From Amphiscolops sp. MND2022 (Eukaryota), in the NCBI GenBank assembly GCA_964187785.1, contig OZ076415.1:30380001-30444000 (forward strand): a stretch of DNA of 64,000 nt, given 5' to 3'. A program made the translations under genes and the position numbers. Below, one piece after another: positions 1 to 63,400 of this stretch (its first letter is position 1; the number at the start of each line of letters is the position of its first letter). The notes under the pieces were generated by a model. It did not search any database and was not told the DNA's origin. It saw only the letters and a program-made list of their open reading frames with translations.

Positions 1-375
1 GAAACAAATGGTACAATTTCATTACAATATTGTCACCCCGAGTAACAAATACACAAAAAACACGACCTAGAATCTCAGTCTTCATAGGAAACAAGCAAAA
101 AAACAAACAAAAAAACAAAAAAACACAAACCAAAATTACCTGACGCAAATGAGGCATATGTTAAAAGTCTGGTCCATTCACTGAGTTCGACTGCCAAAAA
201 GTTAGGAACTCCAAAACATTAAACGGGTCAACACCGCCCAATCGCTGCTTAAACTGTTTCGTTTCACACGCTGCACGCACTGCACGTCAAAGAAGAACAT
301 GACTACCGTACGCTCAGGAGCCACCAAGTTTGCCAAAGCGCGACCAACTGATACATCATTTTCGACCACAACGCT

Positions 376-1279
376 TCAAAAATGCGGAGTAGTATCCAAG
401 CACGATAGCACATTCACAGCTAATGTCACGACATCTGCTTGCCAAGTTTCACGCACAGGAAAAGTCACTAAAATCACTGATTTCGTGCCTGCATCATCCA
501 AAAAGTTACAGTCAATCCTCCAGAAGTTACCATCGAAAAATACCCGCAGACCGATACGATGCCTTCTCTTATCTTCTCGAGAACATATGGATAAATACCG
601 TATAACACCAACCTCTAAAACACAGAAAACCGGAATCAAACCTAGCCACTTAAGGAATTGACACGACCACGAAGTCGTCAGTACGACTCAAATCCAATAC
701 CAACAGACACTCTACAAAATAAATAACACATCATAACATAGCTTCAAAGCCACAAAGTAACCACCTGACATTGCAAAAAGTCGAAATTTCTTTCTGCAAA
801 CCGTAGCAAGCCGCGCATACTAGTTGCCCAGCTATCCATCAATCGCAGCAAACTCTTGAAATTGTTCACAGTAGCCAGCCCGTTTATAAAAAACACAACC
901 ACAAATAGGATCTTCTCTCCGTAGTCAATTGTGGCTTCCCAGGTTCTGCCTCAGTTTTCTCTTCCAGACGAATTCGCTCGTCAGAAGTCAACCCAATGGG
1001 AGACAGGAGATAGACTGGCGGTTCCCTCGATTAATCTGAACGTATGCGCCGTTCTTCAGCAGCAGACACAGGGCGACATGACTTATCAAGGAGCGTGCGT
1101 TGAGTCATTATTCGATATTTCTGTTCGATGCGAGTTTGCTCTGCGCCTTTCCAATGACTCAACAAATTCTGGAGGTCTCTTCCTGCAATGCTCAGATCGA
1201 CTTTACACATAAGGCACCTCGCAAAGCTAGTCAGAACTCGAGGAGGAAAACCCACGAACAGTCCGACTACAACGGACAC
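376..1279 (-). pseudogene. Degenerate Zn-finger/hAT-like antisense cargo gene, homologous to the gene at 53635-57502
   Basis: ORF 1031-1279 has CLMCKVDLSIAGRDLQNLLSHW..EQKYR, resembling CQICKTNVSIFSKGAREIVRHF..DQRWR of the 55.7-57.5 kb ORF. ORF 376-639 resembles the beta-strand region of its exon 2. The frames are broken. Confidence 0.45.
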
Positions 1280-2894
1280 GAAATAAGAAGGCTTCAGTGT
1301 GTTGAATTTTCATTTCCGAACTAAAACACGATGTACGTCTACCCTAAAACTCAAAACCCTTTGAAATCTTATTGGCCACTAGTAGCCAACATTTTCCCCC
1401 TTATCTTGTAAAACATTTCATGTGATCTTGAGAAAAGTTACCAGGCTTTGCCCCCGACGCAGACGCCACAGGCACGTTACCAGTGGCAGGCATCAACAAT
1501 GGATCGCCGATAGCAGTAGGGACTTGTGAAACAGTACTCGAACCACAAGCAGCTACATCCGTAGCAACTGGTATCCAATGGACCAGAATCAGACACACGA
1601 CGACTAGAGCCAGAAGGCATTCTTGTCTGAGATGCCAAGAAGAGAGATGTCTGAGAGGCCTCCACAAACGCTGACTTGAGTCTGACCTGGAAGTCTTCAA
1701 CAGCCAGCGCTCCAACAGTTCGCAGCTGTCCCAGGAAAGAGTCTAAAACAGCCTTCACCCAATGACGGACACTTTCCTCGAGTCGACCCTCTAACTGATG
1801 CAACAGTTCCTCCAACGTCTTTGATCGAGAGTCGCCACTATCTATAACACTCAACACACCTCAGTCAATATACGCTGAAAAACCAGCAACGACTGAACAT
1901 GTCACAAGCTACCCAATTCAAGAGGACACATAAAAAGTTAACCACCAATAACTCACGATCACGTTGAAAAGTGGTTGTGCTGACCTAGGTTGTTATCTAT
2001 CAGCTGATGCAATTGACCGCCAGCACCAGTTGTCCCCATTCAACAGCTAGAATCTCCCAGGGCCGGATACGCACGAACATATTCTAGTAACGTCGACAGA
2101 TCAATGCCGTCAGTAAACAACAAGTACACTTTCAAAGTAACAAAACGGACACAGATACAAACAACGTTCCACTTCTAAGCAGGGACAAAGTATGACTGGA
2201 AACAAAGTTTTCCACGAATGAAGTAGCGCTACAAACAAAGATAAATTTCCCTTCTCCACCACAGGGCAATTTACATGGTGTTCTACAAAAACACATATTA
2301 CAAAAAGGAAATCCCTACCCACGGTATGCAAATTAACAAGGCACTTACGAGAAACTTCTGAAAGAGCAAGATTCAATAATGCATCAAGGCCCTCTCGATT
2401 GACTGAATCTACACAAAATGCAAACCGACAGCATGGTGGATCCACTCGGGCAGCCTCAGAAGCTAACGCAAACTCAGAATTTGCACCTATACTTGACGAC
2501 ATTTCTTCTATTTCCACTGACCTTCGCTCCACCAAAGGCACTAGGGACCACAAGTTCAAATGAACAACTAACTGCCCAAAATTGACATCCAACGTGAAAC
2601 CACGACTAAAAGTCTTGAGAGCAAATACTAGACACAGTAATAAAAAATCGGGAAAATAGATAAAAAGATGATCCAAGACGATATATACGGATCACTGCAG
2701 GAAGTGTGGATTATGTGGCCTGATCAACTAAATTTTGCCCTAGTTGCCTGTCCTACCAAATCTTCAAAAGGAAATACTTCTGTATTTTCAACAGTCTACT
2801 GTTCCAAACACAAAATTATCAGAAGGCACACCCAACGCCTGCACAACTGAAACTAGTCTTTTCAATTACCCCCTTCTTCAATACCCTCTTTTAT

Positions 2895-3094
2895 NNNNNN
2901 NNNNNNNNNNNNNNNNNNNNNNNNNNNNNNNNNNNNNNNNNNNNNNNNNNNNNNNNNNNNNNNNNNNNNNNNNNNNNNNNNNNNNNNNNNNNNNNNNNNN
3001 NNNNNNNNNNNNNNNNNNNNNNNNNNNNNNNNNNNNNNNNNNNNNNNNNNNNNNNNNNNNNNNNNNNNNNNNNNNNNNNNNNNNNNNNNNNNNN
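2895..3094. other. Assembly gap (200 N)
   Basis: Run of N. Confidence 1.
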
Positions 3095-6521: not shown

Positions 6522-9500
6522 AACTTGTCTATGTCAAGATGTGAGTGAGTTCATGCACCTACATGATGGTGTCGACATCGGCAACTGTTTTTATGTGTGT
6601 GTCGACAAGAAATCTTGTGGAGGTCCCGGACATGTGTCGGTATACAGAACGAAAAACAAGAAAAAGAACTGCTACGATGGTTCAGCTCTGCCTACAAGTA
6701 GGTGAAAAAAAGTACTTTTGAACTGTATTTGTAATTCGGTGAGCTATATGAAACGAAACAACAAAAACCCACAAACGTGCAACCCAAAAATAAATCAAAT
6801 ATTAAAAATTCCAAACAAGTTTTATTGCAAAATTCAAATACTTTCTAAAGTTATATCCTGAAGAGTAAACATACATCATTAGTATATGCTATGGAATGTT
6901 ACCCGTACAGTTTGTAAATGAACTTATAAATTTTGGCGCCAGTTTTCATCGAAATTGCTTTTGAAAGCGAATGATCGAAGGATGTGAAATCCTTGAAGCA
7001 TCAGTCAAACGAAAGTTGCGAGCCATTAAAACCAACAAATCTGTAGTTGTTCATTTTGACAACTTTCGGCTCTGAAGAAGAGTTCAACTCTGAAGAAGTT
7101 CCAGAAACAAAAAGAAGCTAAAACTCTCAGTCAACTCGCAAATCGCAAACTGATTTTCTTTGTCGCCAATCATTCACGTCATTCAGCCCAGTTGATCTTA
7201 CGAGTACCACATTTTCGCCGCCAGATGGCTCGTTTTGGTTCCACCTGAGTTTTCCCGCTGGAATTCGGTTGCTTTTCATGTCTCTCCAAATTCCGTCATC
7301 ATCAATATAGATTCCCAAGTAAAATTCATTTGGGCCCAATTTTTCCTCCAAAAAATGAAGCTGTTCCAAAGTTCCATTCACATCATCGAAAAGGTGACCC
7401 CCCAAGTTGATGCAGTTTTGCTTGGCTGAATTCCAGTTTAGTTCCTCTGATACGAATTTCATCCATTCCAGATCTATTCGGGATCCACCTTCGCACTCCT
7501 TTCCGCCGTGAGATGGCTGGAAACAATCACGAAAAAGAACTTTCTTCCACTCATCAGCCGAATCAACTTGAACTTCGTGCCTTTCATTGATCCATTGACC
7601 ATCGATTCGCTTCAAGTCAATTTGGCATAAGTTATCATATTCGGAGTCTTCTCGAACACTCTTGGAAACCCCCTTCTGCTGGCATTGTACGATATAATCT
7701 CTCTTCATACCAACGTAAGAACAGGCGGGATAATTTTCTAAAACAGCTTCCATCGAGAATTTGTCTCCTTGATTCAGTTCACATTTTTCTGGACTACAGG
7801 TGTTGAACGAAAGACATTCAGGTGTGATCAAACACAGAAAGGCACAGAACTGTCTGAATGTTTTGAACTGGGTCTTCCATTGATTGCTTATCAAGCGCTT
7901 TCCTTTCAGCATGTCTCCGTATTGAATCATTCTTTGGGATAGCAAATGACCGGAGGCTTCCACTACATGTAGAAGAAACAACATGTAGAAGAGCAGAGCT
8001 GGAAAAATTGATAGGAGTTTCGCTGAATAGAAGCAAATTGCGTAATATTTACTGATAGCAGAGATCCTCATTGTAACTGAAGTTCTCGCGGATGCCTTTT
8101 TTGTTGATGATCCACGGTCACTGTTTCTGTTGCCCAATGAAGAGCAGCTGTAAAAACATCACTGTTCCAAAATGTAGATAATCAATAATCATCGCAGTCT
8201 ACAATTATAACAATTCGAAAAACGCAGTCAAATTTTTTGCGGGCATTTCATTCCCAGAAAACTTATTTCTAGATCTCCTAGTCCGACAAAAGCTGACATT
8301 TCACTCCCTGCATTTTCTAATGTTTGCATTTTGTGGCAGTTTCAACATCACTGTTCAATTAGAGCGACTGTGTACTATATGCCAGCTGACATCTACCTAG
8401 CTGCTTCCCTTGAATAAACATTGAATTGACGAAATGATGTGACTGTAACGATCTTTGCCTTATGACACCTTTCCGTTATTTTTGGAAAACTTTCTGAAAA
8501 GTTGAAGTTCAGTTAATGTGCGAAAAATATCACATTGCCACAAAGGTTTCGTAAAAAATAAAAGGATATAAAAGAAAATCAATCGTTTGTTAAATGTAGT
8601 TGATCAGTCAAATTTAGAGGAAACGGAAGCACGGTGGTTTCAAAGCATGCTTCTTTTACCTATTTCTTTACCGAACTGATCAGAAACTGCAGTTCCCAAT
8701 TGGAAATTTTTTGAGTTCGATGTCACTAATACGTTCAATTGATTTTGTTTGAACTTTTTTCCCCAAAGAATCTAAATTTGTTGAATCTGTATCTTAAAAC
8801 CTTCCTAGTTTCGCCTAGAAAACTTTTAGAGTAACAGTTTTCTTAAAAAGAAAAGAGGAATCGTACCTTTGCTATGTTCTGTTCTCCCCCGTCAAATGTC
8901 CCCAGAAAAAGAAAAATGACTGAACTTCAATTGAGTCCTTGATTTCAAGCAAAAAGCAGAAGCTTAAATTTTCCAGCTTTCGAGGCCAAAAGTGGTTCTT
9001 TTGATTATACTGAAACAAAGGAATCAACGGGTTCAATAGTGACCAAAAACAATCAAGTGGAAGCTTTGCAAATTTTTATTCAGGTCTCAAAGCAGGTGAA
9101 AGCATGAATGAAAAACAGCTGAAAATACACCCCCATTGTCCTGGAAGACTGTCGTTGAGAGCTCGTTGAAAGACTCAGAAAATCAAACTTGAAAAAAAGA
9201 TAGATAACAGGTGATAATGTAGACTGTTAATTTTTTTAAAAAAAAAAAGGATTTCTGTAAAGCAGGTGGGGGATTTATGAAAAACGGCAGTTTTTTCTCT
9301 CAACTGTTTTTGCATAACAAAAATTTTGAAAAAAACAATGGCCCAAAAATGCAAATTGATAACATAGCAAATAAGAGTTGTTGTCTTCCACATGTTGATG
9401 AAAATAACGATTGAAAATGCATAGGGCGAAATTTCCTGTTACCCAAAAAGTAACACCTGTTTTGGAGAAACTTTAGCAAACGACGTTTTGTCGCTTGTAA

Positions 9501-27011: not shown

Positions 27012-27819
27012 TACACTAGAATACCAAAAGGCTAGAGACACTCGAATTCGTTCGCGAAAAATTCAAAGTTCAGTAAGTTTTTATAAATTCTTTCGGCAAA
27101 GAAGTCTCAGATGCAAAAATTTTACGAACTTTGATCGAAATTACAAGGGCATTTTCTATTTTGAATTCTGATCAAAAATACCTCTGATATTGTATTTCAA
27201 AGATTGGGGGATATTTTTGAACATTTTAACGCAATATCAATTGAGACTTTTTTGTCAAATGCATATCTGAAAAAAAATGTGTTTTCACCTGCAATTTTTC
27301 CTGTTTTGGCAACCTTTTCTGCAATTTGCTGTATTGGTACATACTGTATTTTAAAAAACTTAGCTTAAGTTCTCAAAAGATGCAGACGAAAACAGATGGG
27401 GGCTTATACGGAGGGGGGCTTATATACCGGAATATACGGTACACTAGAATACCAAAAGGCTAGAGACACTCGAATTCGTTCGCGAAAAATTCAAAGTTCA
27501 GTAAGTTTTTATAAATTCTTTCGGCAAAGAAGTCTCAGATGCAAAAATTTTACGAACTTTGATCGAAATTACAAGGGCATTTTCTATTTTGAATTCTGAT
27601 CAAAAATACCTCTGATATTGTATTTCAAAGATTGGGGGATATTTTTGAACATTTTAACGCAATATCAATTGAGACTTTTTTGTCAAATGCATATCTGAAA
27701 AAAAATGTGTTTTCACCTGCAATTTTTCCTGTTTTGGCAACCTTTTCTGCAATTTGCTGTATTGGTACATACTGTATTTTAAAAAACTTAGCTTAAGTTC
27801 TCAAAAGATGCAGACGAAA
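26964..27819. repeat. Apparently identical 428-bp tandem duplication
   Basis: Units start at 26964 and 27392; identical ORFs 26968-27171 and 27396-27599. Confidence 0.95.
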
Positions 27820-33387: not shown

Positions 33388-34250
33388 TCAAATGTTCAAG
33401 TTGCATACTGAGGTTTCAAGCCTGGTACTCTCCACATCGTTCAGTCCAAGCGAATCAACTACCACCACATTTTTTCCATGTAAAGTGGGTTCGTGAGGAA
33501 GCCATAAAAGGTCGTCATCGGCTATTGGGACTCCTTTCATATTGTTCCAAACACTTGTATTACTTGTATTTGTAACAGAGACCGACATGCCCAAATAGAA
33601 ATTGGTATGACCCATTTTGTCGGGCAGAAACTGTAGCTGAGACGCCGTTCCATTGACTGCATCGAATAACTCCCCACCTAAAGTTTCACAATTAGATTGG
33701 GCAGCATTGAACGAATAATGATCACGCACGATTCATATCCACTCTACGCAGAACTTTTTCACTTTCCCCAATGCAGTTGTTTTTCCCACCATGCGCACTT
33801 CGGAAACATTCGCGAACATGCACTTTCTTCCATTCGTCAGCATTGTCGATCAAAATTTCGTCTCTGGCATTGATCCAAAAACCGCCATTTCGTGTTTGGT
33901 TTATCTGGCAATTGCTGTAGAATGAGTCATCCTGGATGTCCTTCAAGTCTCCTCTCTCGTGACAAGTAGGTTGATGGTGGCTTTTCAACCCAACGTAATC
34001 ACAAATCAGGTCATTTTGAAGCAACGCGTTCATCGAGAAAATGTCTGCTCCATTCAGTTCACACTTGTCACCGCAACAAGTGTTGAACGACTTGCAAGCA
34101 GGCGTGAATAAACAATATTGGGCGCAAATGTTCCTAGAAACACCGTTGCAAGTCTTCCAGTGACTGCTGCCATCAAGTCGGTTACCTTTTTTAACATCTT
34201 CATATTGTATAACTCTCTCAGATATTGGAGTGCTACCGCTGCTACGTTGT
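33388..34250 (-). pseudogene. Pseudogene paralog of the PAN/C-type lectin gene
   Basis: VIQYEDVKKGNRL..CAQYCLFTPACKSFNTC..HGGKNNCIG, then frameshift and stop near 33730-33760, then SFNAAQSNCETLGG..WLPHEPT..LNDV..SVC; 5' end disrupted. Confidence 0.85.
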
Positions 34251-45400: not shown

Positions 45401-48400
45401 ACAAAAATGAAACCGGACAGTTCGTACAAAAGACATTTCGTAAAAAATTTAATTGAACAGATTTGCAAAATAGGTCTCAAACAACAGAGTTACTAGCTTT
45501 CAGTGCTGTTACAGCCAATAAGTATGGAACCTGATTTGTAACGTCCGGCTAGCTAGCGGCGCACATCTAGGAAGAGGGACAATGTCTAGAATGCTTAAAC
45601 AGGAGACCATTGTCTTACTACATCCGTAGACACTAATTTTTGTTCCCAATATGGTCTCTGTCCCAGGCGTCCGCCTGTGATGGCAACTTGTATTCTATTT
45701 GCCACAACTATCAAAAAGCCCTACCCAACACGATCCATTTAAATTGAAACTTTTTAAATGAACCGCATTTGTATCTTAAAAGTCATGTAATTTATTTATT
45801 CTGAATATAAAATATCATGTAGGGATGATTTGATATTTCGTAATACCGGCGCTAATTTGTACGTTGCTAGTAAATTGGACACCAAGGCGTACAGGTAGAG
45901 GAAACGCGTTCAAATGTTTTCTCGCCTGTCGCCTTGGTCCACCGGTCCGATTAACTCGCTAGCCAATCACAGTGCAGTACTTTCTTTATTCGGTGCTGTA
46001 TTATGCTGCTAGATTAAAGGGACTGAGTGGCCATATGCCGCCAGTCAACAATATCTCGGTCCACTCATGTCGATTGGACGCTGAGTCCGTTTTGGAATTA
46101 AAGGCGCTTACTGGAAAGTGCTATGAATTACATAATAACCGGTGCTTTACTGTCTTATTTAGTAAATTATTAGTCCTTAGAGGACATGTAATCTGCATTA
46201 ATTAGTACGCCATCAATGCATTTGATATAATTCATGCAATTAGAAAGTGTTGAAATACATGCAGTTTATTGAGTTCATACATGTATGTCGTTGCTTGTCC
46301 GCATGGACCTCCAGTCTTCCCGCCACAATAACTGTCGGGAAAGGCCCTTTGATCTATGATGATGTCACTAGTTAACCGTTGCTATATTTAGAACTGTTGC
46401 TATTTTTAGAAGCCCTTAAGGCTATTATTAGAAAATGATGATCAATATTATGCGTGTCATGTAGTTTGTTATATATATAGCGGAGACATTTAGTCCCGGG
46501 ACACAAGAAGTTTGACCTTACTACATGCCTGTTACTTGATACTGAGTAATCTCACACTGAATTTGCAAGCCTGAGAACTTAATTTAAATTCTTACCTCTT
46601 GCAACAATCTCTTATGCCTTCTACTAGACATCAAAAAGCGAAAGCTAGGAAATCTAGGGAAATGGACATGATGTCCGACTTTGAAAACTTAGATGTGATG
46701 CTGGGAAATAGCAATAATAATCCCATAGAAAGGGAATTAGCTGAAGCTATAGATCAGTCATCGGCCCATGGGGACGCTGATACACATACGTACCTAGAGA
46801 ATGAATATAGAGATTACCAACATGAAAATGATGTACTGAGACAAAATGAAATCAGACACTCCTTTGAAACCTTCTCGAACGAGTTTAATCTCAGATTATC
46901 TCAAGAAATGGATTCTATGATGTCAATGATGCATAATCAAATAAATAGAGCTGTCACAACGGCTATAAATGAAAGAGTCATTCCAGAAATTCAAAACATT
47001 GCTAGTTCCATGTCCTCCGCTGGGCACAGGGACACTGAGGCCAGTTCGTCCCCGAATAGCCAGGAAAACAAGGAAAGCGCATCTGGGCCTAAAATAAAAA
47101 TTGCAAAGAAGGATTCACGATCTGTAGGAGATCTAAGAGAGACCCTAGGTCAGAGTTCTCACATGGTGACAGGAGCCATTGACACCCAACAGCAGATCCC
47201 TGAATTCCTGACTGGACGAATCCACTCAATCCCGAACCTCCAGAGGCAACATTCCAACCACAATGTCTCTCTGGACACGACTCTGCCAGCCCCAGACCCC
47301 GAGGTCCCAGAGCCACAGCAGGACCCGTTCAACAGATTGGCTGATGTATTAGTCAATTTGCAAAATAAACCACAAACTATGACCATCAGACCTGTCCAAA
47401 CAACTCCAATGACGTTTGACGGAAAAAGCGAAAAATTTGAGCTTTTTGAGGACTTGATCCACACGATGATCAAAATGCAACCTGCAATGACAGAACAGAT
47501 GAAATTCAACCATTTCCATTCATTGCTACGAAAAGGGGCATTACAGACATTTAGGAACATAAACTCCATCAACCGTCAGACTCTGGAAGACGTACTGGTC
47601 ATATTCCGGAGAAAGTACGTTAAACCGGAATCCCAACCGACGGCAAAACACAAATGGCATCGACTGACGTTCGACCCAAATACCATGAAATTGCCGGACT
47701 TCTTGGAAGAACTGAACCAAGGAGCTGAAAAGGCTTTTGGCGAAAATGCAAAAAGCATGATTGACAGTTTGTTATATGCGAAACTTCCACCAAAATTAAA
47801 ACGATCTGTCAACATGGCCCGGTTGGAGAACGGGACGTATGAAGAAATAGTCGCTCATCGTGAAAGAGAGCTAGAACTTAATGCATTAGAAGAGTCCGAT
47901 GACTTGCCAATGGCCACTATGGCCTCGGCGTCAACAAACCAGAGCAACTTACTCTCTACTGGCATCAACACCAACAAAGACGCTCCATGCTCTTATTGCA
48001 AAGCAACCGGACATTTTTACAAAAGCTGTCCTAAACTCAAGAAAAAGAAAGAAATGGAGGAAAAAGATGGCAAAAAACCACAGCGTCCTACTTACCCACC
48101 TTGTGACACATGTGGGAAAAAGAACCATTCAACTGAAAAATGTTGGCAAGGAGCAGGTGCCCACCTGCGTCCCAAGAGCTTACAAGCGGAGCAAAAAGAC
48201 TCAAACGCCTCAACTTCAGAAAGCAAACCTAAAACATCAGGTGACACGACGACCACCAGCTCAAGCCAATCCAATATCACAAAGACAGATCCAAAAAACT
48301 AATTTTGCCACGACTCCAAATACATGACTATATGTCGGTTCGACAGTATGTCATTTCAGACCCTCCAATTATAACATTCCGACACTATATAAAGGATACC

Positions 48401-51400
48401 ACAGGCACCCCATCCGTCGTCTGGCAGCAACAGATGGAGAAAGCCTGCATCAAAACCTATAAACAAGTACACAACGATCGCCCAGACCGATTTTACGAAA
48501 CTGACTATACTAAAGACTTTCAGACTCCATTCCGTCCCTTACCATTGGTCGAAGACTACCACCCTCAATACATTGACGCTGAGTATGGTAAAGATCCGTA
48601 TTGGGATGATGAATTATATGGCAAACGAAATCTCCAATTCCGGAACGAAGACTATCCCCCAACAGACGATGAGGACGATCCCCAAATAGAGGACACTAAA
48701 CTCTCTAGGGCCCTCATTGAACTTTGGCAACCAAATTCTGAAGCAATCACAAGAGAAATAAGGGAAACTCCAGAGCAAGAAGATCACCAAGACCCCAATA
48801 GCCTCCTGGATGAAACAGCCTTCTTGCATATTTTAGTGGAACAACAAGGTGAACCATCATACGTTCCTCTTTCCACTAATCTTGGACTTAAAATTAAAAG
48901 GCGGATGTTATATTTTCCAATGGACTTCGGAGAACTAACGTTAGATGGACTCATAGACACTGGGGCCCACTCCAGCGCTCTCCCAGAAGCAGACCTCAGG
49001 AAAATACGGCTATTAGCGCCTCAATCCATAGTCAAAGAGGGACCTGCCCCATCTTTCCAAATCATGGTCGCAAATGGTGACCTAGAGACTCCCAAAAGCA
49101 CAGTGGAATTGAAATTTGAAGTAGGGGACATTGAGTTCCATGAGATCTTCATTGTGATGGAAAAACTATCCAGCCCCATAATTGGACTTATGTTCTTACA
49201 AAGAAATCACACAGTCCTAGATATGCGCCAAGGCATACTCAACTTCCCCTTTTTCTCGATGCAATTGAAAACGGCTGACCACAAGTACTCGAACGTCATG
49301 GAGCCCATCCTCAATCCTGAGGATGTCACAATTCCACCAAATGACCGTACAATCATCTCCATTCAATCCAGAATTTACGCAGAAAATGCTGTCACTGGGA
49401 TTTTACAGCCCAGTGAACATCTAAATGAAGAAAATGATATACCCTTCTGCGCTGCCATAATTACACTCGATGAAGGGACCACGAGGATACACATTAATAA
49501 TTTTACTGACCAACCCTACAAACTCAAAAAGGGGATGCACATAGCCAACTTCTCAGTAATGACGCCAGAGCAGATGAAACACGTCAGGCCAATAGACCCG
49601 GTGTCCACATGGCACCTCCTCAATGAAAATGAAGAAGATGCTGTTCAATATATCAGCAGCCTTCTGAAAGCCAACAGGAATAACGACCAATATGAACAAT
49701 ACTGGTTCCCAACTCCCGAGAACCCGGGGGACGAAGCGTCCCACACGCCAATACAAAAACGAATACTCAGAGAATTGCGAAATTTGCAAGAAGCAGAAAG
49801 CCTCAATCCTCAAGAAAATGAAGAATCTCGGCAAACATTCCTCAGTAATTTTGATTGGAAAGACTCAATGCTACAACAGCATGAAATCAAACAAATAGAA
49901 GCTCTCTTAGTGGAATTTCATGACATATTTGCACGTCATAGATTTGATATTGGGATGAACGAGGAGTTCACGGTCAAACTGACCCCGAAGGACGACTCAC
50001 CCGCATACAGCCAGAGCTTACCAACTCCAATAAATTTAAAAGAGGATATCCTAGTTGAGCTGGCATTACTTCACAAATACGGTATTATAACTACTTTACC
50101 GTTCTCAAAATATGCCAGTCCTATTTTCGCGCAAAAGAAGCCTAACGGGAAGCTACGATTATTAGTAGACCTCAGGAAGATCAATAATTTGATTTCTGAT
50201 GATTATATTAATAACAACCACCCAGTTAGTACCTTGACGGACGCTACGCAACACATGGCCGGGAAGAGACTTTTTTGCAAACTTGATTGCTCACAGGCGT
50301 ACCACTGCCTCCAAATGGCAGACCAAAGGTCTATTGAAATGCTGGCCTTCAACTTTGCCAGCAGAACTTTCGCTTACAGACGATTGGCCCAAGGACTCAG
50401 TAGAGCCCTGTCGGCCTTCTCTAGCTTCATGAGGGAATACTTGGACCGCGTTATCAAGGCAGACCAATGTGCGCAATATGTCGACGACATTGGCATAGCA
50501 GCAAATGATGCCGAACATTTGATCAAAAACCTCCGAGCCACATTTGAATGCATAAGAGAGGCTGGATTAAAACTCACAATGCACAAATGTCATTTTGGCG
50601 CAACAGAAATTGACTTTCTGGGAAGAACAATCACCCCAGAGGGCGTCAAGCCTCAAAAGGAAAGTATCACAAACTTCCTAGAAAAAACTAACTTTCCGAA
50701 ATCCAAAAAAGCCTTGCAAAGATACCTCGGTTTCCTCAATTATTACAGAAACTACATACCGAGACTATCAGAAAAATTGGCTCCCTTCTTTCAACTACTT
50801 AAGAAGGACGAGAAGGTCTTAGTCACATCAGAGCTGATCGAACAATTCAACGAAATCAATAGAGACCTGGACCGGTGTAGCCAATTAGCCTTGAGGCAAC
50901 CACTGCCGAATCGACAGCTAGTCCTGATGACAGATGCCAGTTTTACGGCAGCAGGATACGCTATACTCACTGAAGACGATCCAAACCAGAAATTCACCTC
51001 AGTCAAGAAATCCTATGCACCTATTGCTTATGGTTCGAAAACTTTTATTCCTTCCCAACTTAAAATGTCGATATATGCGAAAGAATTTCTCGCTATATAT
51101 TACGCATTTAAAGAATTCGGACATATATTCTGGGGGACACCTAAACCGGTAATTATCCTTACAGACAACAAATCGGTCACAAGGTTCTTCCAGACCAAGA
51201 TCATACCGCCGCCATTATGGAATGCCTGTGATTTCGTCATCCAGTTCAACTTTATAATAGCCCACATTCCAGGCAAGAATAATACAGCGGCAGACTATTT
51301 GTCCCGTTTGGAAATGGAACCGACCGAAAAGTTAGTTTTGAAAATTCGTGCAGACGTTGAAACACAGCCTATTGAAGTCAACGTGCAGTCGGCCGGTGTG

Positions 51401-54400
51401 TCCGAAGAGGAACAAGTGTTCTTTACTGAGGAAGATAATGAAACGGAAGAACAAATCTGGGAACGAAAACGACAATCAAAAGCAGGACTCAAGGTCCCGG
51501 AGACTGTCATCCAAATTGATGCCATATCCGAAAATATCGTCGAAGAAATTACTAATTTCACCCAGAAGCTCCGTAGAACTAATCAAATACTGCTAGAGCA
51601 ATCCAAAGACCCGATATTACTTCAATTAAAGGCAAAAATTCAGAATGAAGAATACTCTGAGGAGATCCTCCAACAGGACATCAGGTATAGACATTATTTG
51701 AACAATCTAGACCGAATAGTCCTCAAAGACGAAATTGTCACAAGGAAATACTATGACGAAACAGGCCAAATTAAACACCACCAGATATTACTGCCCAAAC
51801 ACTTGTTAAAAGAATTACTGCAAGCAATACATGGCACGGCCCATAAACACCCGGGCATATCCAAAATGTTACAAGAAATTCGCCAAAAATACTACTACCC
51901 TGGGATAGCCAAACATGTTAAAAAATGGGTAGAAGGCTGTGAGACGTGTGCCAGAGACAAAAGAGTCCCTAACAATACAATCACGCCAGAATTGTTAAAT
52001 TTGCCCGAGTGGGACCTAGGTCCCGAAGATGCCATGCGATCGACTTACTACCAAATCTACCGACTAGTGGAGGATACCAGACAGTGATGACGGCTATTGA
52101 TATATTTTCAAGATACCTATTCGCCTACCCGCTAATTGAGGCAACAGCCACGAATGTAGCCAAGGTGATAATTGACATAATGACGAAACATTCATATTTG
52201 CCAACAACTCTCATCACAGACAAGGGGTCCTCATTTACATCGACCATCATAGCTGAGATAACTCAAATTTTGGGCATAACACTCAAATGCGCAACTACAA
52301 AGCACCCGCAAACAATTGGCAAGCTGGAAAGGACGCATGCCTCACTCAAAACCAATTTGAAAATGGCCTCAGGAGAGTATCGACGCCAATGGCATAAATA
52401 CCTGCCACTAGCAGTACTCAACTATAATACCACATATCACTCCAGTATTGGATGTGAACCGAGTAAAGTCTTTCATGGCCGAATTCCTTTTAACGTCCTA
52501 GATCACAAATTGGGGAACAATCCCAATAAAAATTTCATGCCAACTACAGACTTTGCGGAAGAAGTGCAACAGCGGACACAAATCCTCATTGATCAGACCA
52601 AAATAACATAATGCAGTCCTACCTAAAGTATAAGGACAACTACGACCGAAAGGCTAAAGCGGCTCCGCTTAAAGAAAACGAATATTGTTTTATTCTACAA
52701 CCTAAAGCGGACAGTCAAGCATCAAAGATCCCATTCAGGGAATACAGGTGGATTGGCCCCTTTGTCGTTCAGACAGTACTGTCCAATGACAATTATATTG
52801 TGCGTCGATTAAATACAAATAAAACGCAAATACTACATCGCATTAGATTAAAGAAATTCGTACCAAATGCCCCCTTAGAGGACAAATATGAAGGTGAAAA
52901 ATTACAGCCCGACAATGAGATAGTAATACCACAAGACGACTTGTATTCCATCTCATGGGAAGTGGATTTTGAGTACGACTTATTTGAACCGAGAAAGGAA
53001 GATTGGACCGACGTGGCCACACGCCGGCCGACCGACACTGAGGACAGCTGTGCGGATCATTACGTCATTGAAAATGAACGCAGCAACGCGAGCGAAAATG
53101 AAAGCCGCTCCGAACGAATTAACGAGGATGACGTCACCGAGAATGAAATATGGCCAACAAAGAAGAATAACAGTGACGAATCGTCCCCGCTGAACGAAAC
53201 GCCATATGAGGACGACAATGAAATTGACGTCACTAATGATTTCAAAAATACGGAAAGCGTTTCAAACAGAGGCGCAGATATTACCGTGCCCGGAATATCG
53301 GAAAAAGAAAGCTTTGAAGAAAACTCTAGCCCTAGAGGAGGGAGATATAACCTTCGACCTAACCCCAACCCCAACTTTACTGATGAATACAGATACTAGC
53401 CAGAAATTTGAATTACTAGTCCCCTCTTTATTTTGACTATTGGTCCATGAGGACATTCATTTTTTACTTGGGACTTTCTGACTTACTTTGTTACTTGAAA
53501 TAATTATGTACAATAAAGAAGACCTAGTGGCGAATAATACAAAGCCACGCCCAAACAAAACAACAAACAGATGAAATAAATATAAAGCAGTTTACAACAA
53601 GTACAGTCTAGAAACAAATGTACTCTTTGTACATTTAAGATTTAGAAGTTCCAGGAGCGTTCACATCACTGGACTTTGCGGCTTCAGTTTCACCAGCTGC
53701 CCGAAAGCCAACTTTCTTGCCTTTACCAGGGGACAGCTTACGTTGTTTCCCCCCTTCTTTGGACGAGGAATTGGAAGCGGACTCGATGTCAGGACGGACA
53801 CTCTTGCCCAGAGCTTTGTAGACTGCGATTAAGGTTTTATGTAAATTAGCTTTGCCGAAACTGTCTACGTGTGACCAAGGGTCTCCTGGGACGTTGCCAA
53901 TATTGAATCGGAATTCCAGATCTTTGAATGTACCCAAGGAAGCTTCTGTAGTGCACACAGCCACTGAATTTGCCACATTAGCTAGGTAAGACTGTGCAGG
54001 CATGATGACATCGAAAAGTCTACTTCGGGGATCATTGCAATCAACTCCAGAGAATTTGATGGCTGGGAGCTCTGGCAACTTAGAAGTCAGGCACAGACAA
54101 CTCAACTGGAAGATGTAGAACAGATGTTTCCGCAACTTCAATTCAGGCATACCAATCTCCACGAAATCGACGTACTCGTCTCGGGCATCAGTCTCTGGGG
54201 AATTCTCTAACCAGCCTCGCAAACTAAAGGATCTGTACAGAGCGGAGAAACAATATGTGGCTTGCTCAAGCGGCAGACTCAGGAGGGCTACTGGATCGAA
54301 ACTGCCCAGGCCTCTTACGATACCAGCATTCAGGCTAATGTCGGCAAGGATGACTTTCAAAAGATGGACGAGGTAACCTCGGGCCTTGGTGGCGAAATCG

Positions 54401-57400
54401 TCCCGAATGGCCTCAGCTGCTGTCTCCGTCTCTTCAGGCGTCAGTTGCTTCTCGCTATATATTCTCTTGACGCGAGCATGGCATGCGGCATCCAAATTTT
54501 CTTTGAGCTTCAAGCGACTCAAGAAATCTCGGTTAGACAGTTGTCGCCAATTCTGTCCTTGTAAATCGCCCAGCGACTTCCAGTCCAGGATATCAGGCAC
54601 GTGTCTGGGAAGTAGTGCTCGACCTGCCAACTTGCGGATGAAAGTATGGAACTCTCGGAAGGTGTAGAAGCCACTATCCCTTCGCTGTGCAAACTGACTC
54701 TCGAAGCTCTTGGTGTCTGGAAAACAAAACATTACCATCCTGAAGGGTCCCTATGACACCATTAGACCTAACGTGTCAATCTACTATATCTCGCATGAGC
54801 CTCAAATAGTGGTAAGAGAAACTGAGACCATGAGGTCCGTAGACAAGAGGGAAACCAATATACTAACAATCGCGGACAATTCGTGCGAAGAACTCCAGCT
54901 TGATGGTGAAGAAATCATCAGCTATGATTTCCCACTCGAGGCTTTGGGGCTTGTTTTTGACCCCCTGGTGGACCTGTGGTGGTGCTATCTTCGTCAAATG
55001 CTGGTGCACAGACTTCCAGTTCGCAATCAGTTCCGAACATATGGCTGGTACAGCGGCAATTTCCAGGTGATAGGTAGTCATCGCCTACAATCAACATGTT
55101 TATTGGAGGCAATTCAAAACTGGACCTACAGTCTTACGGACAGTGACCTTACCTTAACGAATTCTGGCATTAGGGCGGCCCAGGGCTGTCCACCGCAATC
55201 GTCCAAGAATGTAACCAGAAACTTCAACTGAGAGAAGAAACTGATGGTACCAAACACGCTGCCCCATCGTTCATGCATCAGGTCCGGCAGACAAAGAGCA
55301 TCAAATCGAAAAGGGTACTCAATCCCTTTTTGGAAGAGGCAAGAACGTTCAAGAAGAGGAATCACCTCTACAGGACACCCAGACACGCTCACAATCTGAG
55401 GTTGTGTTGATAGGACGGACAAGAGACGGGAAAGTACCAACAGGAAACCAGCAGCAGGCTCTGAAGCAGTCCGGTATCGTAGCAAACGGACGACATTGAG
55501 GGATTCGCCCTTCCAGAACCGGATCGAGACAAAGCTGTAGGTGCCTCGCATTTCAAACTCCAGAGAGTACTGACCCGTGACACTGACTTGATACGCGATG
55601 TCAGCGATGCCACAGAGGAAGATGTGATGAAAGATCGTCTAAAACAAAATTAACCAGGATGAAAATGAATCGGGGCTACGTTAGGGCTAAAAGACCCTGA
55701 GGCTAGAAATCGCCAATACTTACTGTCAGTTTGGAGGAGCCCCAATCGTAAGGAGAGAACAGACTCTGATGGTTGGTAACAGTGCCAATCTGTGACCATA
55801 GCGACTCAAGGACGTTTAGATCTCCACAACGAGGAGCGAAGAGAGCAACCATGGAGATTTGGACGCACAGTCTGATCTCCTCCTGCCCAGCGATGGAGCC
55901 CAGGCCAGCCATATGATCCTCGTAGAAGGGGTTACTGCTGCCAGTTTCAACCAAAGGAACTTGCATGAAGAAAGGCTTCTCTTTCTCAAGTTCTAAGGGA
56001 GTCAACAATTGGCCCTTCTTCCCTCTGACTTCGTGCACAATCCGGCCAGTCACCTTGTCCTTCTTCCTTAAGTGCTCATATCTCCAGCGCTGATCTTTGC
56101 GGAAATGCGGCTCACACTGGAAATGGCGGACAATCTCCCGAGCTCCTTTTGAAAAAATGGAAACGTTCGTCTTACATATCTGGCAGTAGAACTTATGTTT
56201 ATTGTGCTCTGGGTCAAGGGGGCCGGTGACGAATGTGCGAGTCCACTGAATTCCTTTGAAATAGGCTTCTTTCATTATTTTGCCTGTGCGTCCAGGAAGC
56301 CGACGACGTTTGCGAGGTGGACTTGAGGCAGAAGCTTGGTCAGTGGTCAATGTGGCTAAAGGCTCATAGTCGGTTGAGCAGAATCCTGGACTAGGGACTT
56401 GTTGTGCGGATGATGGTCCAGATGTTGAAGTCGAACTTTGATCTGGAGGACTTGGAGGGGGATTGATGCTCAGATCCTTGCCAGTTCTTTGCGAATTGAT
56501 GACAAACTCATCTTCCGAACTGAGCGCTCCACTAGTGTACCCCTCAGTCCCAACGTCACTGTCTTCCGCACCTGATCCAAGGCTGCCGCTCTGCTTACGG
56601 AAGATCTTGATTCGCTGCTTCCCGGATCCTTGAGGAGTCCCTTGGGAGCGAATTCCCGCCCGGATCGCTTCTTCCAGCATGTTCTTCATTTGGTGTAAGG
56701 AAGAAGTAATGGTTTCCGTGGAGACGGCACGCAAGATGGAATGGACTTGCCCCTGATTGAAGGCTACGGCCGCATGGCCTACCGGGAGGATGCACGGGTT
56801 GGTCTCATTGAAATGCTGATTTATGAGCGTTCGAGCAGAGGCAGATAGAGGCCTGGTGGGACTGAAGAGCTTCGGGGAAGATGTGCTTGGTAACTCAGCC
56901 GAGGTTGATGGCTTAACATTCTCATGGGTCTCGGTCCCAGCGGAGCTTAGCGCATCCAGTGCAATCAAGAAAGGAGGTTCCTTGACGGTCTCAGCACCTG
57001 AACTATCAAGCAATTCTTCAGCGTCGCTGGTATCTGTTTGAAAGTAATCCGCCTTGGTGACGGAAAATCCAGCTTCACTGACAGCATCATTGCCCCGCTC
57101 AATCTCAGCCTCAGGAGACTCCTTGTCTTGTGACCCAGTCGTGACCTGGGGAATTGGCTCCGACTCAGAAGCTTTCTCAGCGGTTGGCTTTAGTACATTG
57201 TCTACAATGGCAGATGTGGTAGGAGGCAAGAAAGAGATGTCCAATCCAGTGCCTTGACAACCTAGAGTCTGCAACTGACGCTCAATGTACGCAGAGATAC
57301 TCTCATCGGTGGAAGGGATGGGAGTTGGATCAGTCCTAGCTGAGCTGTCTTTTGGCGGATCAGGCTGCTTAGTCTCCGCGTCCTTTATGGCAGTGGCGGT

Positions 57401-60400
57401 CTGGTCGACGACTGTTTCTTCAGCCTGTTGTGGAACTTCTTCTTCTGTTGAAGCCCCAGTAGCGGTAGCGGGAATGATTTCATTGTTCTCTTCGGACGAC
57501 ATGTCTAAATAGAAAGAGATAAAATTAAGCGGAGAACTTCCTGAAAAAGAGTCCATTGCCGCATTAAAAAATCTTCCGGAAGTAGATATTTGAACTCAAG
57601 TGAATGCTTGAGTTATGGGACAGGAAGTACGTGAATGAAATGAGAGCCCTGATCAAGCCTCAAACTAGTTCATTACCAAAAATAGAAATGAAAACCCTTG
57701 AGACGCTACTGACCTGTGTGGACTAAATTGAAGGAGAGAAGTTCTGTATGTAGACTGTGGATGCTGGGTGAATGGTTAATCCTGGAAGTCGGTCTGACGA
57801 AAAGAATTATGTTGGGCTAGAAGTAGTAGTTGAACAGCAGAAGCTGGGTGAGAGAAGCAGATTCTTCTTTGAAAGAGGGAGAGGATGTTGAATATGGGTG
57901 AATTTGCCAAAAGGGACTCAGTGTCGATTGTCCTAGACTGTCCCAAGAAATCCAGAGGCGTTGTAACAAAGTGAAATTACAAAAGGAAACTTCAAATGAA
58001 ATGGAAATAAATATGACGCAAAGACTAAAAGACTAAAGATGATTAAATACTGGCGATAATACAAAGAGAGTAACTGGAGAAGAATTCGAATGTAAAAGAA
58101 TTGAAAGCTGAATTGGCAATGTGACAAAGTGTCAAAATTGGAGTTCGTGGCTATACAGTTTGGTGTCAAATTTGTTATTATTTACAATTTACAGTGTTAT
58201 GTGGATAGAGTCTGCCAGCGATATCTACAATTACTTATTCATTTCGAAAATGTACCATTTTACAAATTATTTCATGATTTTCCAAGATTTCATTAATTTC
58301 AAGGTCATTTTACATTAGTCCTTATATGGATTTACGACCTTGGGGGGCCATTTTATTCAGAAAAGATCGTGCTGCATTCCTATTGGCCAATCAAGATTGC
58401 TGGGGAACGGCGTGGCTGACTGCCATAGCTCACCCTCTTGAAACCTTTAAGTGCTTGATAAGTGTTAATAAACACTTGAAGCGGCACTCTTAATATGGAG
58501 GTGTTGACAAAACTGATGTAAGCCAACAAGGCCGTTGTCGGCGTTATCAAAGAAGGCAAGACGGATAGATGAAAGATATTACCAAGATGGAATTTGTTAT
58601 TGAAAATTTATCCTTCTCAGGAGACGCAAAACCCCGGGAAACTGAGACGAAAACTCCCGCTAGTCGACGGAAGGGAAGGCCGCCATTGTTCTACAATCAT
58701 TTGCAACAACCAGTTGGCTATTTGAAATAAAACTCAAAAAACTTCTCAAAAGAAATCTCTCCGAAAATTGCAAAGAAAATAATTATGGACAAATTCCTAT
58801 CAAGCCATTTCGACTCAGAGTCCCCCGAGTACTTCCCTGAAGACTTTCTGGGCGCAGCCCCAGGAGACGGAATAATTTGCATATCCAGTGATGATGAAAT
58901 GGAATGTGTGAGCAGAGCTTCAGTAGACGACCTAGAATCTCTATCCGACGATGATGAAGTGGCTTTACTGGCGGAATGTGTAGAAAGACAAATGGAACTC
59001 CCATTAGCCTCAGAAAACATTCCAGTGCCCTCCTGTTCAAACCAACAGGGAGAAGATCGCTCCGAGGCCCCCAGGCTCTCATACATCCCTGGACCAATGT
59101 TCGATGCTGGATACTTTGATCTAGGAATGGGGAGAGGGCCAGTCGCAAGAGACACAAGGCTCAAAAACGATCATCCGATTAATATTTGCAGCCAATTAAT
59201 TCCAATGGTGGACACGCCAATGTCCCCCCCTGCTGTAGATAAATACCCTACAGGCGACTGGAGAGCAATGGTAGAGCCCTCTACTAGTAACAAGCAACAA
59301 TGCCCAAGTGGAATACACTTTAAAGGCCCTAGCGACGACAATCCCTACATCACGGGCTGCACAGACTGCCTCATCTGCGGAAAATCTGTGGAACAGATTC
59401 AAGATGAAGCAGTGATTGACTACATGCACAAGACGGCTGTCCGAGGGGAGTCCCCAGAACAATTCAATGCCAGAAGACTAGCGTTCTTAGAAGGAATGAA
59501 GGTGGGCTGCTTCATGCTAATCCCAGGGGGAGTGTCCCAGGCGTCCGCCTGTGATGGCAACTTGTATTCTATTTGCCACAACTATCAAAAAGCCCTACCC
59601 AACACGATCCATTTAAATTGAAACTTTTTAAATGAACCGCATTTGTATCTTAAAAGTCATGTAATTTATTTATTCTGAATATAAAATATCATGTAGGGAT
59701 GATTTGATATTATGTAATACCGGCGCTAATTTGTACGTTGCTAGTAAATTGGACACCAAGGCGTACAGGTAGAGGAAACGCGTTCAAATGTTTTCTCGCC
59801 TGTCGCCTTGGTCCACCGGTCCGATTAACTCGCTAGCCAATCACAGTGCAGTACTTTCTTTATTCGGTGCTGTATTATGCTGCTAGATTAAAGGGACTGA
59901 GTGGCCATATGCCGCCAGTCAACAATATCTCGGTCCACTCATGTCGATTGGACGCTGAGTCCGTTTTGGAATTAAAGGCGCTTACTGGAAAGTGCTATGA
60001 CTTACATAATAACCGGTGCTTTACTGTCTTATTTGGTAAATTATTAGTCCTTAGAGGACATGTAATCTGCATTAATTAGTACGCCATCAATGCATTTGAT
60101 ATAATTCATGCAATTAGAAAGTGTTGAAATACATGCAGTTTATTGAGTTCATACATGTATGTCGTTGCTTGTCCGCATGGACCTCCAGTCTTCCCGCCAC
60201 AATAACTGTCGGGAAAGGCCCTTTGATCTATGATGATGTCACTAGTTAACCGTTGCTATATTTAGAACTGTTGCTATTTTTAGAAGCCCTTAAGGCTATT
60301 ATTAGAAAATGATGATCAATATTATGCGTGTCATGTAGTTTGTTATATATATAGCGGAGACATTTAGTCCCGGGACACAAGAAGTTTGACCTTACTACAT

Positions 60401-63400
60401 GCCTGTTACTTGATACTGAGTAATCTCACACTGAATTTGCAAGCCTGAGAACTTAATTTAAATTCTTACCTCTTGCAACAATCTCTTATGCCTTCTACTA
60501 GACGTCAAAAAGCGAAAGCTAGGAAATCTAGGGAAATGGACATGATGTCCGACTTTGAAAACTTAGATGTGATGCTGGGAAATAGCAATAATAATCCCAT
60601 AGAAAGGGAATTAGCTGAAGCTATAGATCAGTCATCGGCCCATGGGGACGCTGATACACATACGTACCTAGAGAATGAATATAGAGATTACCAACATGAA
60701 AATGATGTACTGAGACAAAATGAAATCAGACACTCCTTTGAAACCTTCTCGAACGAGTTTAATCTCAGATTATCTCAAGAAATGGATTCTATGATGTCAA
60801 TGATGCATAATCAAATAAATAGAGCTGTCACAACGGCTATAAATGAAAGAGTCATTCCAGAAATTCAAAACATTGCTAGTTCCATGTCCTCTGCTGGGCA
60901 CAGGGACACTGAGGCCAGTTCGTCCCCGAATAGCCAGGAAAACAGGGAAAGCGCTTCTGGGCCTAAAATAAAAATTGCAAAGAAGGATTCACGATCTGTA
61001 GGAGATCTAAGAGGGACCCTAGGTCAGAGTTCTCACAGTCTCCTAGGAGATTTTTCTTTCGTCAAAGGAGGCTCCTCTAGCTAGAGCTCCGAGGCGACGT
61101 GCCGGCACTCTCAAAGTCCGGACACACCCCCACAAGCCTGTAAAATTGAATCCTAAGGTTTTTCCCGCAACTCCTACATACTTCCGAGGTCCAAAAAGGT
61201 ATCTAACTGAAATACATTATATTTGGGAAATAAGGACTGAAATGGAGACCTAGTAGGTCAAACATCATCCAAATACTCTGTAAACGGTAACAAAACACGG
61301 GTATAAGCCCCAATAACATTACAGTTCGGATTTGGTCATCAGTCTGGCATCTGGCATCATTCCTCATCTTCGGGGCACAATGGTCTCATTTGGCATTTTT
61401 CTGCCGAAACCCTGTCTTTTTGTTGTCAGATGGCACAATTCCTGATTCTCTCGCCTTCTGGGTGATGACATCTCGGACATTCACGTTCCTGAGTGGGGGT
61501 GGGTTTTTTTGCCTTTATTTTGCTTCCTCTACGGTTTTCGTACCTGCCGGGTCGGCCATCTTGAATGTGCTTGTTTGATACCGCACATTTCGAATTTTTG
61601 ATCGAAATTTTCAAAAAATTCTGCAACGTCCCTTGCCTGACGTTACAATTCAATTAAAGAGGTTAGCATATATGTTGTATGGCTCGGTCGCTTCGCTCCC
61701 TTCGCCAAGTAGCAACATAGAGGCATGGCCAAATGGCACGTCGCTCCGCTTCGCTTCGCTCCTGCATTTAGGGCCTAGGGGTATGTGAACATAGCTGACT
61801 ACGTTATAAAAGTAAGTTGTATAATATAAATTGCACTAAATGTCGGGTTTCATTTTTGTACGAAATGTCTGGTTTCGTTTTTGTACGAAATGTCTGGTTT
61901 CGCTTTTGTACGAAATGTCTGGTTTTGGTTTTTGTACAAGATGTCGTGTGTACGAAATGTCGTGTGTGCGAATTGTCGAGCCCCCTAAATCCTTATATCT
62001 TTCTTGTACAAGTCAACAGGAGATACAACAGAACTAATTTTCTTATATTTCATTTTTGAAAAGTTGCAAGATGAAAACATGTATATTGAAATTGAAAGCA
62101 CAATTATCAACCCACTTTGAATATTGACAACAGTTGAAATCGCTCGGATAATATGAGAACAGACGAAATTTGCTGCAATCATGCAAAAATCAAACACAAA
62201 AACTAGTGTATCCATTGAAATTGGTTTAAAAGATACATGTAAGTATGGCCGTTTCACTGCCCTGGTTAATTCAACTGGTATACATTTACCTTGGCTGTTT
62301 CCCACGATAGAAAAATTTGCGTGTATATAAACGCGTTCTCTGCCCCGAAACCCATTCTGTCGACGACTCTCCGTGAATCCTGCATTGCTACGATTCCCTC
62401 AGTGGAAGTTGAAACTTCGGCCACTTTCAAGTAAAATCGGGAGCTCTGAAAAAGTGAAGATGGATGGTAAGTGAGTTTCAAAACCGATGTTTTGGATGAT
62501 CATCAAGAAGAACATTTTTTTTCGTGAGATACCTTATTCCTTATTACGTATGTACTTAATAGTACGAGTATAATATCCTTGCAAAATTATATTACAAAAA
62601 CAAAACATTAGCATCTAAAATTACAGATATTTTTGGGAGGATCGTTTTTTATGATAATCCAGCCGAAAGTGGCAAGTTGTTTTTTTCTAAGCAGTGTGCA
62701 TCAGTTTTTAACCGTCAGTGCTTTATTTGTAGATGATAGTTTTCTGTAGTCAGAAACTTGAAAATTGTCAAAAACTTAACTTCATGAAATAGCAGCTCTT
62801 AAGCTGTGAAATAGCATTTTTGCGAAAAGAGGGGTAGATTAATAAGCTTTAAAGGAATATTCAGTTCAACTTTCTGAAACTTGATGATCTTGAAAAAATC
62901 ATTCCCATGTTGACAAAAAATTCATTCCTTTCAAGAACCTTGCAAGATTCTTGCAAAAAAACACATTACTTACAAAAACAATTTTCTTGCAAGTAATCAA
63001 AACTGATGACAAAAGTTTCTAAAAAGAAACAATTACTGATATGGAAGTCTTCTCTCCAGTTTCTGCGAAATTTACATCATGCTCGAACGAATTCGCTTCG
63101 TTGTTGATGAACTTTTTGGCCAGATATGTCAATTATTCAATGTTAGATGGCTTTCCTGAACAACAAAAATACAAATTTAACAAAAACCCGTGGTGCCAAA
63201 AATATTTCTCAAATACATCTCAAATACACGCTTTTTTTGATATCGAAATTAGCCGTTGCTAGTTAATCCTCTTCTGCAATCTTCTCAATTTCATAGAATT
63301 ATTTTTTCCGCCCTAAATTTCCACAGGGGAAGTTTGAACTATTTTTTCAGTCCGATTTTTTTTTCATTTAACAAATTTTGTTGTTCAAAAATTAGAGTTT

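Follow-up and report, generated by a model that had tools for sequence, protein, structure and literature searches.

How much of a Gag protein can be encoded within a long terminal repeat (LTR), and is such a stretch translated? The question is raised by a retrotransposon in the 64,000-nt window (the whole stretch of DNA that was analysed), whose gag frame opens far inside the 5′ LTR and continues across the primer-binding site (PBS) into the interior of the element.

The element and its genes

When the sequence was compared with itself 13,874 nt further on, without gaps, two direct LTRs were identified on the + strand, at 45659–47163 and 59533–61037. They were 1505 nt each, ended in TG...CA and differed at 9 positions (6 transitions and 3 transversions). 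The 5-mer GTCTC flanks the element (45654–45658, + strand, and 61038–61042), giving a target-site duplication (TSD) of 5 bp, within the 4–6 bp of Ty3/gypsy elements. A PBS follows the 5′ LTR and a polypurine tract precedes the 3′ LTR. The pol order (protease, RT, RNase H, and integrase) and domains are of the gypsy type, with Pfam matches to gag-asp_proteas, RVT_1, RT_RNaseH, Integrase_H2C2, rve, and, weakly, Integrase_p58_C. The Pfam search detected no BEL-type family in the element at E ≤ 0.1, and the solved chains nearest to the RT–RNase H part were foamy virus, chain 8r0s, and Ty3. Judged by its sequence, the element (45659–61037) is a young Ty3/gypsy-type retrotransposon (Metaviridae). 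Identity with Troyka was considered and rejected, as the CG...CG ends and 3-bp TSD given in the available portion of the source (PMC12440569) do not fit. Self-priming from the LTR was also rejected (the best LTR partner of the PBS had 3 mismatches in 12), and no tRNA gene was found in the 64,000-nt window.

The gag ORF (46614–48302, +) encodes 562 aa, with a capsid-like region at approximately residues 236–435 and two CCHC knuckles, as indicated by a weak DUF1759 match, Atlas clusters, and nucleocapsid matches (E 0.0035). Its Atlas features led to Ty3_capsid/Retrotrans_gag (Arc-like) clusters (0.95; 163 of 256 shared). The structure model of this Gag was weak in the capsid region, and a Foldseek search with this weak model against the PDB returned nothing at E ≤ 0.001. 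An A AAA AAC heptamer, which we take to belong to the frameshift-type class, is located at the gag stop (48293–48299, +); pol is open across it in the −1 frame, which suggests −1 frameshifting between gag and pol. The pol region (48332–53399, +) was delimited using ORFs, Pfam, and fold comparison. Between protease and RT, a dUTPase-like match (49316–49564, +; pol residues 329–411) was weak (E 0.0008) and below the cut-off. The integrase part occupies three frames in this copy, even though no more than 9 of the 1505 LTR sites differ; the breaks near 52087 and 52611 may be real lesions or assembly errors.

Downstream of pol, two antisense ORFs (53635–57556, −) encode 617 aa (57556–55703) and 367 aa (54738–53635). 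The former belongs to a 77-member cluster, measures 617 aa in all 15 members listed, and ends shortly past a GTAAGT donor (55723–55718). It showed a weak C2H2 match in Pfam, and its zinc finger presumably resembles the BED type. Taken with the clusters and the donor site, these ORFs are probably exons of a spliced accessory gene.

Elsewhere in the window, positions 1–3000 combine an A-rich strand skew, a higher GC content like that of the element interior, and broken frames, and are possibly a piece of a decayed retroelement. Two related cysteine-rich, host-like ORFs were observed at 7127–8158 (−) and 33722–34249 (−), the first of which we take to end in a C-type-lectin-like stretch, and a frame at 21392–21928 (+) presumably resembles the end of a MULE-type transposase. 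A direct repeat (26964–27263 and 27392–27691) is 100% identical over at least 300 nt at a spacing of 428 nt, and a 71-nt perfect hairpin (20534–20675) lies among many short inverted repeats.

Reading frames across both LTR ends

The gag ATG at 46614 is base 956 of the LTR and lies 550 nt ahead of its 3′ end, with the closest in-frame stop upstream at 46572. Codon 183 is CAC (47160–47162), and the A of codon 184 (A|TG) is the last LTR base (47163). The adjoining PBS-like sequence (TGGTGACAGGAG, 47164–47175, +) is read in frame as part of M184-V185-T186-G187. A preliminary description had proposed that gag starts 550 nt inside the LTR and that the LTR end and PBS are in-frame coding sequence; both statements are confirmed here, the 550 nt being counted from the LTR 3′ end. 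It had also assigned the first 183 codons to R/U5. That number of codons does lie in the LTR, whereas the R/U5 label has as its sole ground a TATA-like run found by motif scan (46470–46480, +), which would place the transcription start approximately 20–35 nt downstream and thus the ATG 3′ of it. The presumed leader contains a 4-codon upstream ORF (46525–46539, +).

Within the LTR, the gag frame is free of stops for 196 codons, while none of the other five frames exceeds 63. When 20,000 random sequences were given the dinucleotide make-up of the LTR, not one contained 183 consecutive plus-strand codons without a stop (median longest run, 71 codons), and the frame is not a product of chance. The LTR-coded part contains 37% A, compared with 36% in capsid, 34% in pol, and 28% in the upstream U3, so its base make-up follows that of the coding interior, unlike the upstream U3. 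The two LTRs differ at five sites within the gag frame (3 replacing and 2 silent), which reflect drift after insertion and are uninformative.

The same type of layout, with the start codon in the LTR and a frame open over the LTR end and PBS, is found in Ty1 (Ty1/copia, Pseudoviridae) of Saccharomyces cerevisiae. There, according to the portion of the source available, the GAG start codon lies 40 bp before the 5′ LTR ends (PMC10512236), in line with the earlier remark that Ty1 gag starts in its LTR by only a few codons. The present overlap differs from that of Ty1 in its extent, 550 nt or 183 codons with a conserved domain among them, and in belonging to an element of gypsy-type pol order. Reading through the LTR end and PBS is already known from Ty1; the extent here is extreme, and the opposite end of the LTR has a coding overlap to match. 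A literature phrase search for a gag start or an ORF inside an LTR found no whole Gag domain in an LTR, a weak negative because most subscription papers and repeat-database entries were outside its reach.

The overlap at the other end is formed by ORF-X (58785–59621, +; 278 aa), which crosses the polypurine tract (AGGGGGAG, 59525–59532, +), read as P-G-G-V, and enters the U3 of the 3′ LTR, whose start splits codon V250 (G|TG). In the 5′ LTR, the U3 start at 45659–45747 (+) corresponds to the final 28 whole codons of ORF-X plus its stop; as part of ORF-X, this stretch is read only in the 3′ LTR. In 15 aligned rows that were 38–90% identical, P-G-G-V-S-Q followed by A-C-D-G-N was nearly invariant. 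Among 75 relatives, the SQxxAC motif stood just past the junction in 35, of which 30 had PGG|VSQ and 26 had the stop 28 residues on. ORF-X holds a CxxC pair and an acidic motif that we assume to resemble a SUMO-interaction motif. No Pfam family was found at E ≤ 0.01 across 43 relatives, and a Foldseek search of its weak structure model against viral models returned nothing at E ≤ 0.001.

Genes overlapping U3 are familiar from retroviruses, namely HIV nef and MMTV sag, in which gag starts 3′ of the PBS. ORF-X is similar to these as a sense accessory ORF running over the polypurine tract into U3, but differs in having no Pfam or fold match, and gag here starts inside the LTR. In Ty1, POL ends 25 bp short of the 3′ LTR according to the accessible part of the same source (PMC10512236), while ORF-X codes into the LTR. 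With the LTR-coded part of gag (hereafter gag-N) lying over the 5′ LTR end and PBS, and ORF-X over the polypurine tract and U3, each primer site and each LTR end falls inside a reading frame.

ORF-X is conserved, lies in sense orientation 5 kb beyond pol, and must be expressed by some route; gag-N might double as a shared first coding exon spliced to it. The precedent is Cer1 of Caenorhabditis elegans, which shares Gag N-terminal peptides with CERV, as stated in the part of the source that was accessible (PMC10309623). AG acceptor-like sites do exist upstream of and within ORF-X; on the other hand, a simple consensus score yielded no donor reaching at least 4 of 6 in 46481–47600, and ORF-X has a Met of its own, similarly placed in most of the 15 aligned relatives. 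We consider such a shared exon highly improbable.

Conservation and predicted structure of gag-N

The LTR-coded residues 1–183 (46614–47162, +) comprise a conserved basic/acidic motif (1–34), a variable linker, a helix (81–135), a second variable linker, and a junction motif. A search with the full-length Gag gave 2623 matches among 8000 scored candidates; in the best 120 of them, the alignment began at residue 1 in 113 and at residue 17 in 7. Residues 1–183 as the query retrieved 608 representatives, with identity down to 33% among the 150 listed, and a second gag-N query reached full-length Gags of distant groups. The 179 read-through Gags that start at the same Met1 form six groups, which are 36–75% mutually identical in the LTR-coded part. 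Its length is 181–190 aa across these groups, which implies that only in-frame indels have occurred. Every relative seen has this same layout, in a sample of predicted proteins that is itself selected for open frames; the layout may have arisen through upstream extension of gag or through a downstream shift of the LTR boundary. Seventeen pattern matches in viral contigs and 233 in metagenome contigs gave no confirmed related locus. The Atlas search with residues 1–183 returned no usable match, which shows neither novelty nor absence, and Pfam contained no meaningful family for gag-N.

The position of the LTR end can be read from the relatives themselves. Of 378 proteins, the 256 that aligned across the junction with Tyr or His at position 183 were used and the other 122 were left out; 196 of the 256 continue with Met-Val, and 60 carry other tails of 1–93 residues. 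The first tail residue was compatible with a codon beginning with A in all 60, compared with 23/55, 25/54, and 23/53 at the next three places, in a set that includes a few near-duplicates and one apparent mutated 5′ copy and under the assumption of an LTR ending in ...ACA at that codon. In the cluster of the 3′-LTR frame of this window, the rule held in 11 of 11 scorable rows among the 15 listed. As the first tail residue fits the LTR-terminal A, the codon at which the LTR ends is the same over the whole range of identity, 33% to 100%.

Translation might instead begin at the PBS-overlapping Met184, with the upstream frame as an untranslated remnant or a carrier of RNA or DNA signals. Met184 has G at +4, whereas Met1 has a weak context with an upstream ATG ahead of it. 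M184 and V185 were kept in 120 of the 120 best-listed relatives; this invariance is uninformative on initiation, since it is forced by the LTR end and the TGG of the PBS. At least seven in-frame ATGs lie 5′ of Met184. Furthermore, the junction RNA fold was no better than that of shuffled sequences (z −0.27), and an Rfam search at the junction gave one match only, at chance level. Met1-Pro-Ser-Thr is kept among the relatives, and several in-frame indels have left the frame open even where identity is as low as 36%. Under our own neutral model, a 183-codon stretch at 36–43% identity would stay stop-free with a probability of 0.003–0.006. Among the 104 cluster members listed (no more than 15 from any one cluster), the start was Met1 or Met17 with read-through in 69, a site inside gag-N in 9, Met184 in 2, and a site further down in 14; the other 10 were LTR-only.

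Substitution patterns point in the same direction for parts of gag-N. Identity to the two most distant groups was 74% in residues 1–34, 40–52% in 81–130, 6–33% in the linkers, and 89–94% in capsid. Against the same neutral model, helix changes relative to these two groups were conservative (mean BLOSUM +0.54 and +0.77 versus −0.44; z 3.1 and 4.2, respectively), with z 2.2 in a third comparison. Changes in the 1–34 motif were also conservative (z 3.0, 1.9, and 2.6 in the three comparisons), and those in the linkers of distant groups were not (z −0.3 to 1.0). The ratio of between-subfamily to private changes was 0.96 over residues 1–183, close to the private rate, as a Met184 start would lead one to expect; it was 0.92 in the helix, 0.50 in the motif, and 0.08 in capsid. 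Constraint on residues 1–183 is therefore modest and far weaker than on capsid, and part of the conservation near 1–34 and 164–187 could reflect nucleic-acid signals. Given the retained Met1, the open frame in relatives, and the conservative change with a hydrophobic period in 81–130, initiation at 47163 with an unconstrained upstream frame, which the preliminary description had named as the outcome that would speak against it, seems to us very unlikely. The LTR-coded Gag layout, read from the sequences of the relatives, is real and family-wide, and it is probably translated.

AlphaFold2 (57 rows) predicted a single confident feature, a helix over residues 65–135, with pLDDT values of 73–88 over 81–130 and weak values in the rest of gag-N. 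Conserved hydrophobic positions in the helix (46854–47018, +, for residues 81–135) recur with a period of approximately 3.75–3.8. Such a period is typical of right-handed coiled coils. Three copies of residues 72–140 were modelled as an in-register parallel bundle with a score of 0.38, versus 0.01 for the best control; runs agreed in at least 85% of contacts, pLDDT was at least 73, and the contacts fell at the same positions. In calibration, 21 of 30 solved pairs attained the corresponding mark, as did 0 of 23 single chains. For eukaryotes the figures were 17 of 29 for pairs (animals, 7 of 16) and 0 of 30 for single chains, and of the eukaryotic proteins that lack an older solved relative, 1 of 7 passed; this calibration used two copies and the bundle model three. 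The model supports self-association of residues 72–140 but settles neither that association nor the number of copies. A predicted coiled coil ahead of capsid also occurs in the Ty3/gypsy element Cer1, as far as the accessible portion of PMC10309623 goes. By the same partial account, Cer1 differs in having a 5′ UTR after its 492-bp LTR and hence no LTR-coded Gag, and no CERV-type splice was found here. Read most simply, the LTR-coded part would be a normal pre-capsid domain of Gag that is found at an unusual location.

We consider it probable that a real pre-capsid Gag domain, the first 183 residues from the ATG at 46614, is encoded inside the LTR, and that LTR-only peptides are by-products. 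Transcription would start near 46490–46505, and ribosomes would pass a leader of approximately 110–120 nt and initiate at Met1, with Met17 and Met19 as back-ups. Translation would then cross the LTR end and PBS into capsid and nucleocapsid, followed by Pol through the −1 frameshift. The basic/acidic tip and the parallel coiled coil would bundle Gag molecules ahead of capsid, with fast-evolving linkers joining the parts. Because the LTR end and PBS sit in a linker, the DNA signals would fix only a few residues (Y/H-M-V-T-G) at little cost. An R-U5 strong-stop of approximately 660–670 nt would be copied in reverse transcription.

LTR-only frames and coding LTRs

As the 5′ LTR has to read through, it must be free of stops, and the same frame, followed by a random tail, is therefore present in 3′ and solo LTRs. 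In this element, the LTR-only gag-N frame (60488–61084, +) encodes 198 aa, namely the 183 LTR codons plus 15 residues from the TSD and flank, and its cluster has 94 members, compared with 92 in the nearest full-Gag cluster. The earlier proposal that 3′ or solo LTRs carry a truncated, helical gag-N peptide holds for the frame, given the tails of the 60 copies and the 94-member cluster, and is consistent with the predicted helix at 65–135. Its further analogy with the Ty1 restriction factor p22 is weak. Like p22/p18, gag-N would be an element-encoded truncated Gag that could interact with full Gag. However, p22 is the capsid-side (C-terminal) half of Gag, and the LTR-only product ends at residue 183, before the capsid-like region begins at approximately 236. 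It is possible, though improbable, that gag-N would be dominant-negative through the modelled coiled coil, by a mechanism other than that of p22.

In addition to the role of gag-N in Gag, the LTR-only peptide might be made from 3′ and solo LTR promoters, and as a capsid-less partner in the coiled coil it would poison assembly according to copy number. In the nearest subfamily, LTR-only frames equal full Gags in number, and they keep the promoter-like run, the ATG, and the whole helix with its bundle model (0.38 versus 0.01). Nevertheless, they share no common stop, and their tails of 1–93 unrelated residues are what a by-product would give. Two AATAAA hexamers lie inside the gag-N frame (46940 and 47093), where the residues over both vary among relatives, and RNA cut at either would leave an LTR-born transcript without a stop codon. 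Transcripts of this kind undergo decay. The capsid half that constitutes p22 is absent from the product, and the family has reached hundreds of near-intact copies. Poisoning of this kind is, in our estimation, improbable. A broader version, which we regard as speculative and unlikely, would treat the LTR as a self-contained gene cassette of promoter, start codon, and a coiled coil that trimerises. Capsid-less Gag-N, made by hundreds of 3′ and solo LTRs, would then titrate assembly as a copy-number brake scaling with LTR number, and the cassette could fuse its coiled coil to flanking host sequence, seeding new genes.

For the pre-capsid domain that we favour, the consequences concern how LTRs are regarded. 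LTRs count as non-coding control regions, and annotation routinely separates them from the "internal" part, yet approximately 640 of the 1505 LTR bases are coding here. Reading frames take in both primer sites and both LTR ends throughout a family in which gag-N diverges by up to two thirds, which raises the questions of how translation of the PBS is reconciled with primer annealing and how a strong-stop of approximately 670 nt is handled. Solo LTRs, which are commonly viewed as inert remnants or as promoters only, may yield protein.
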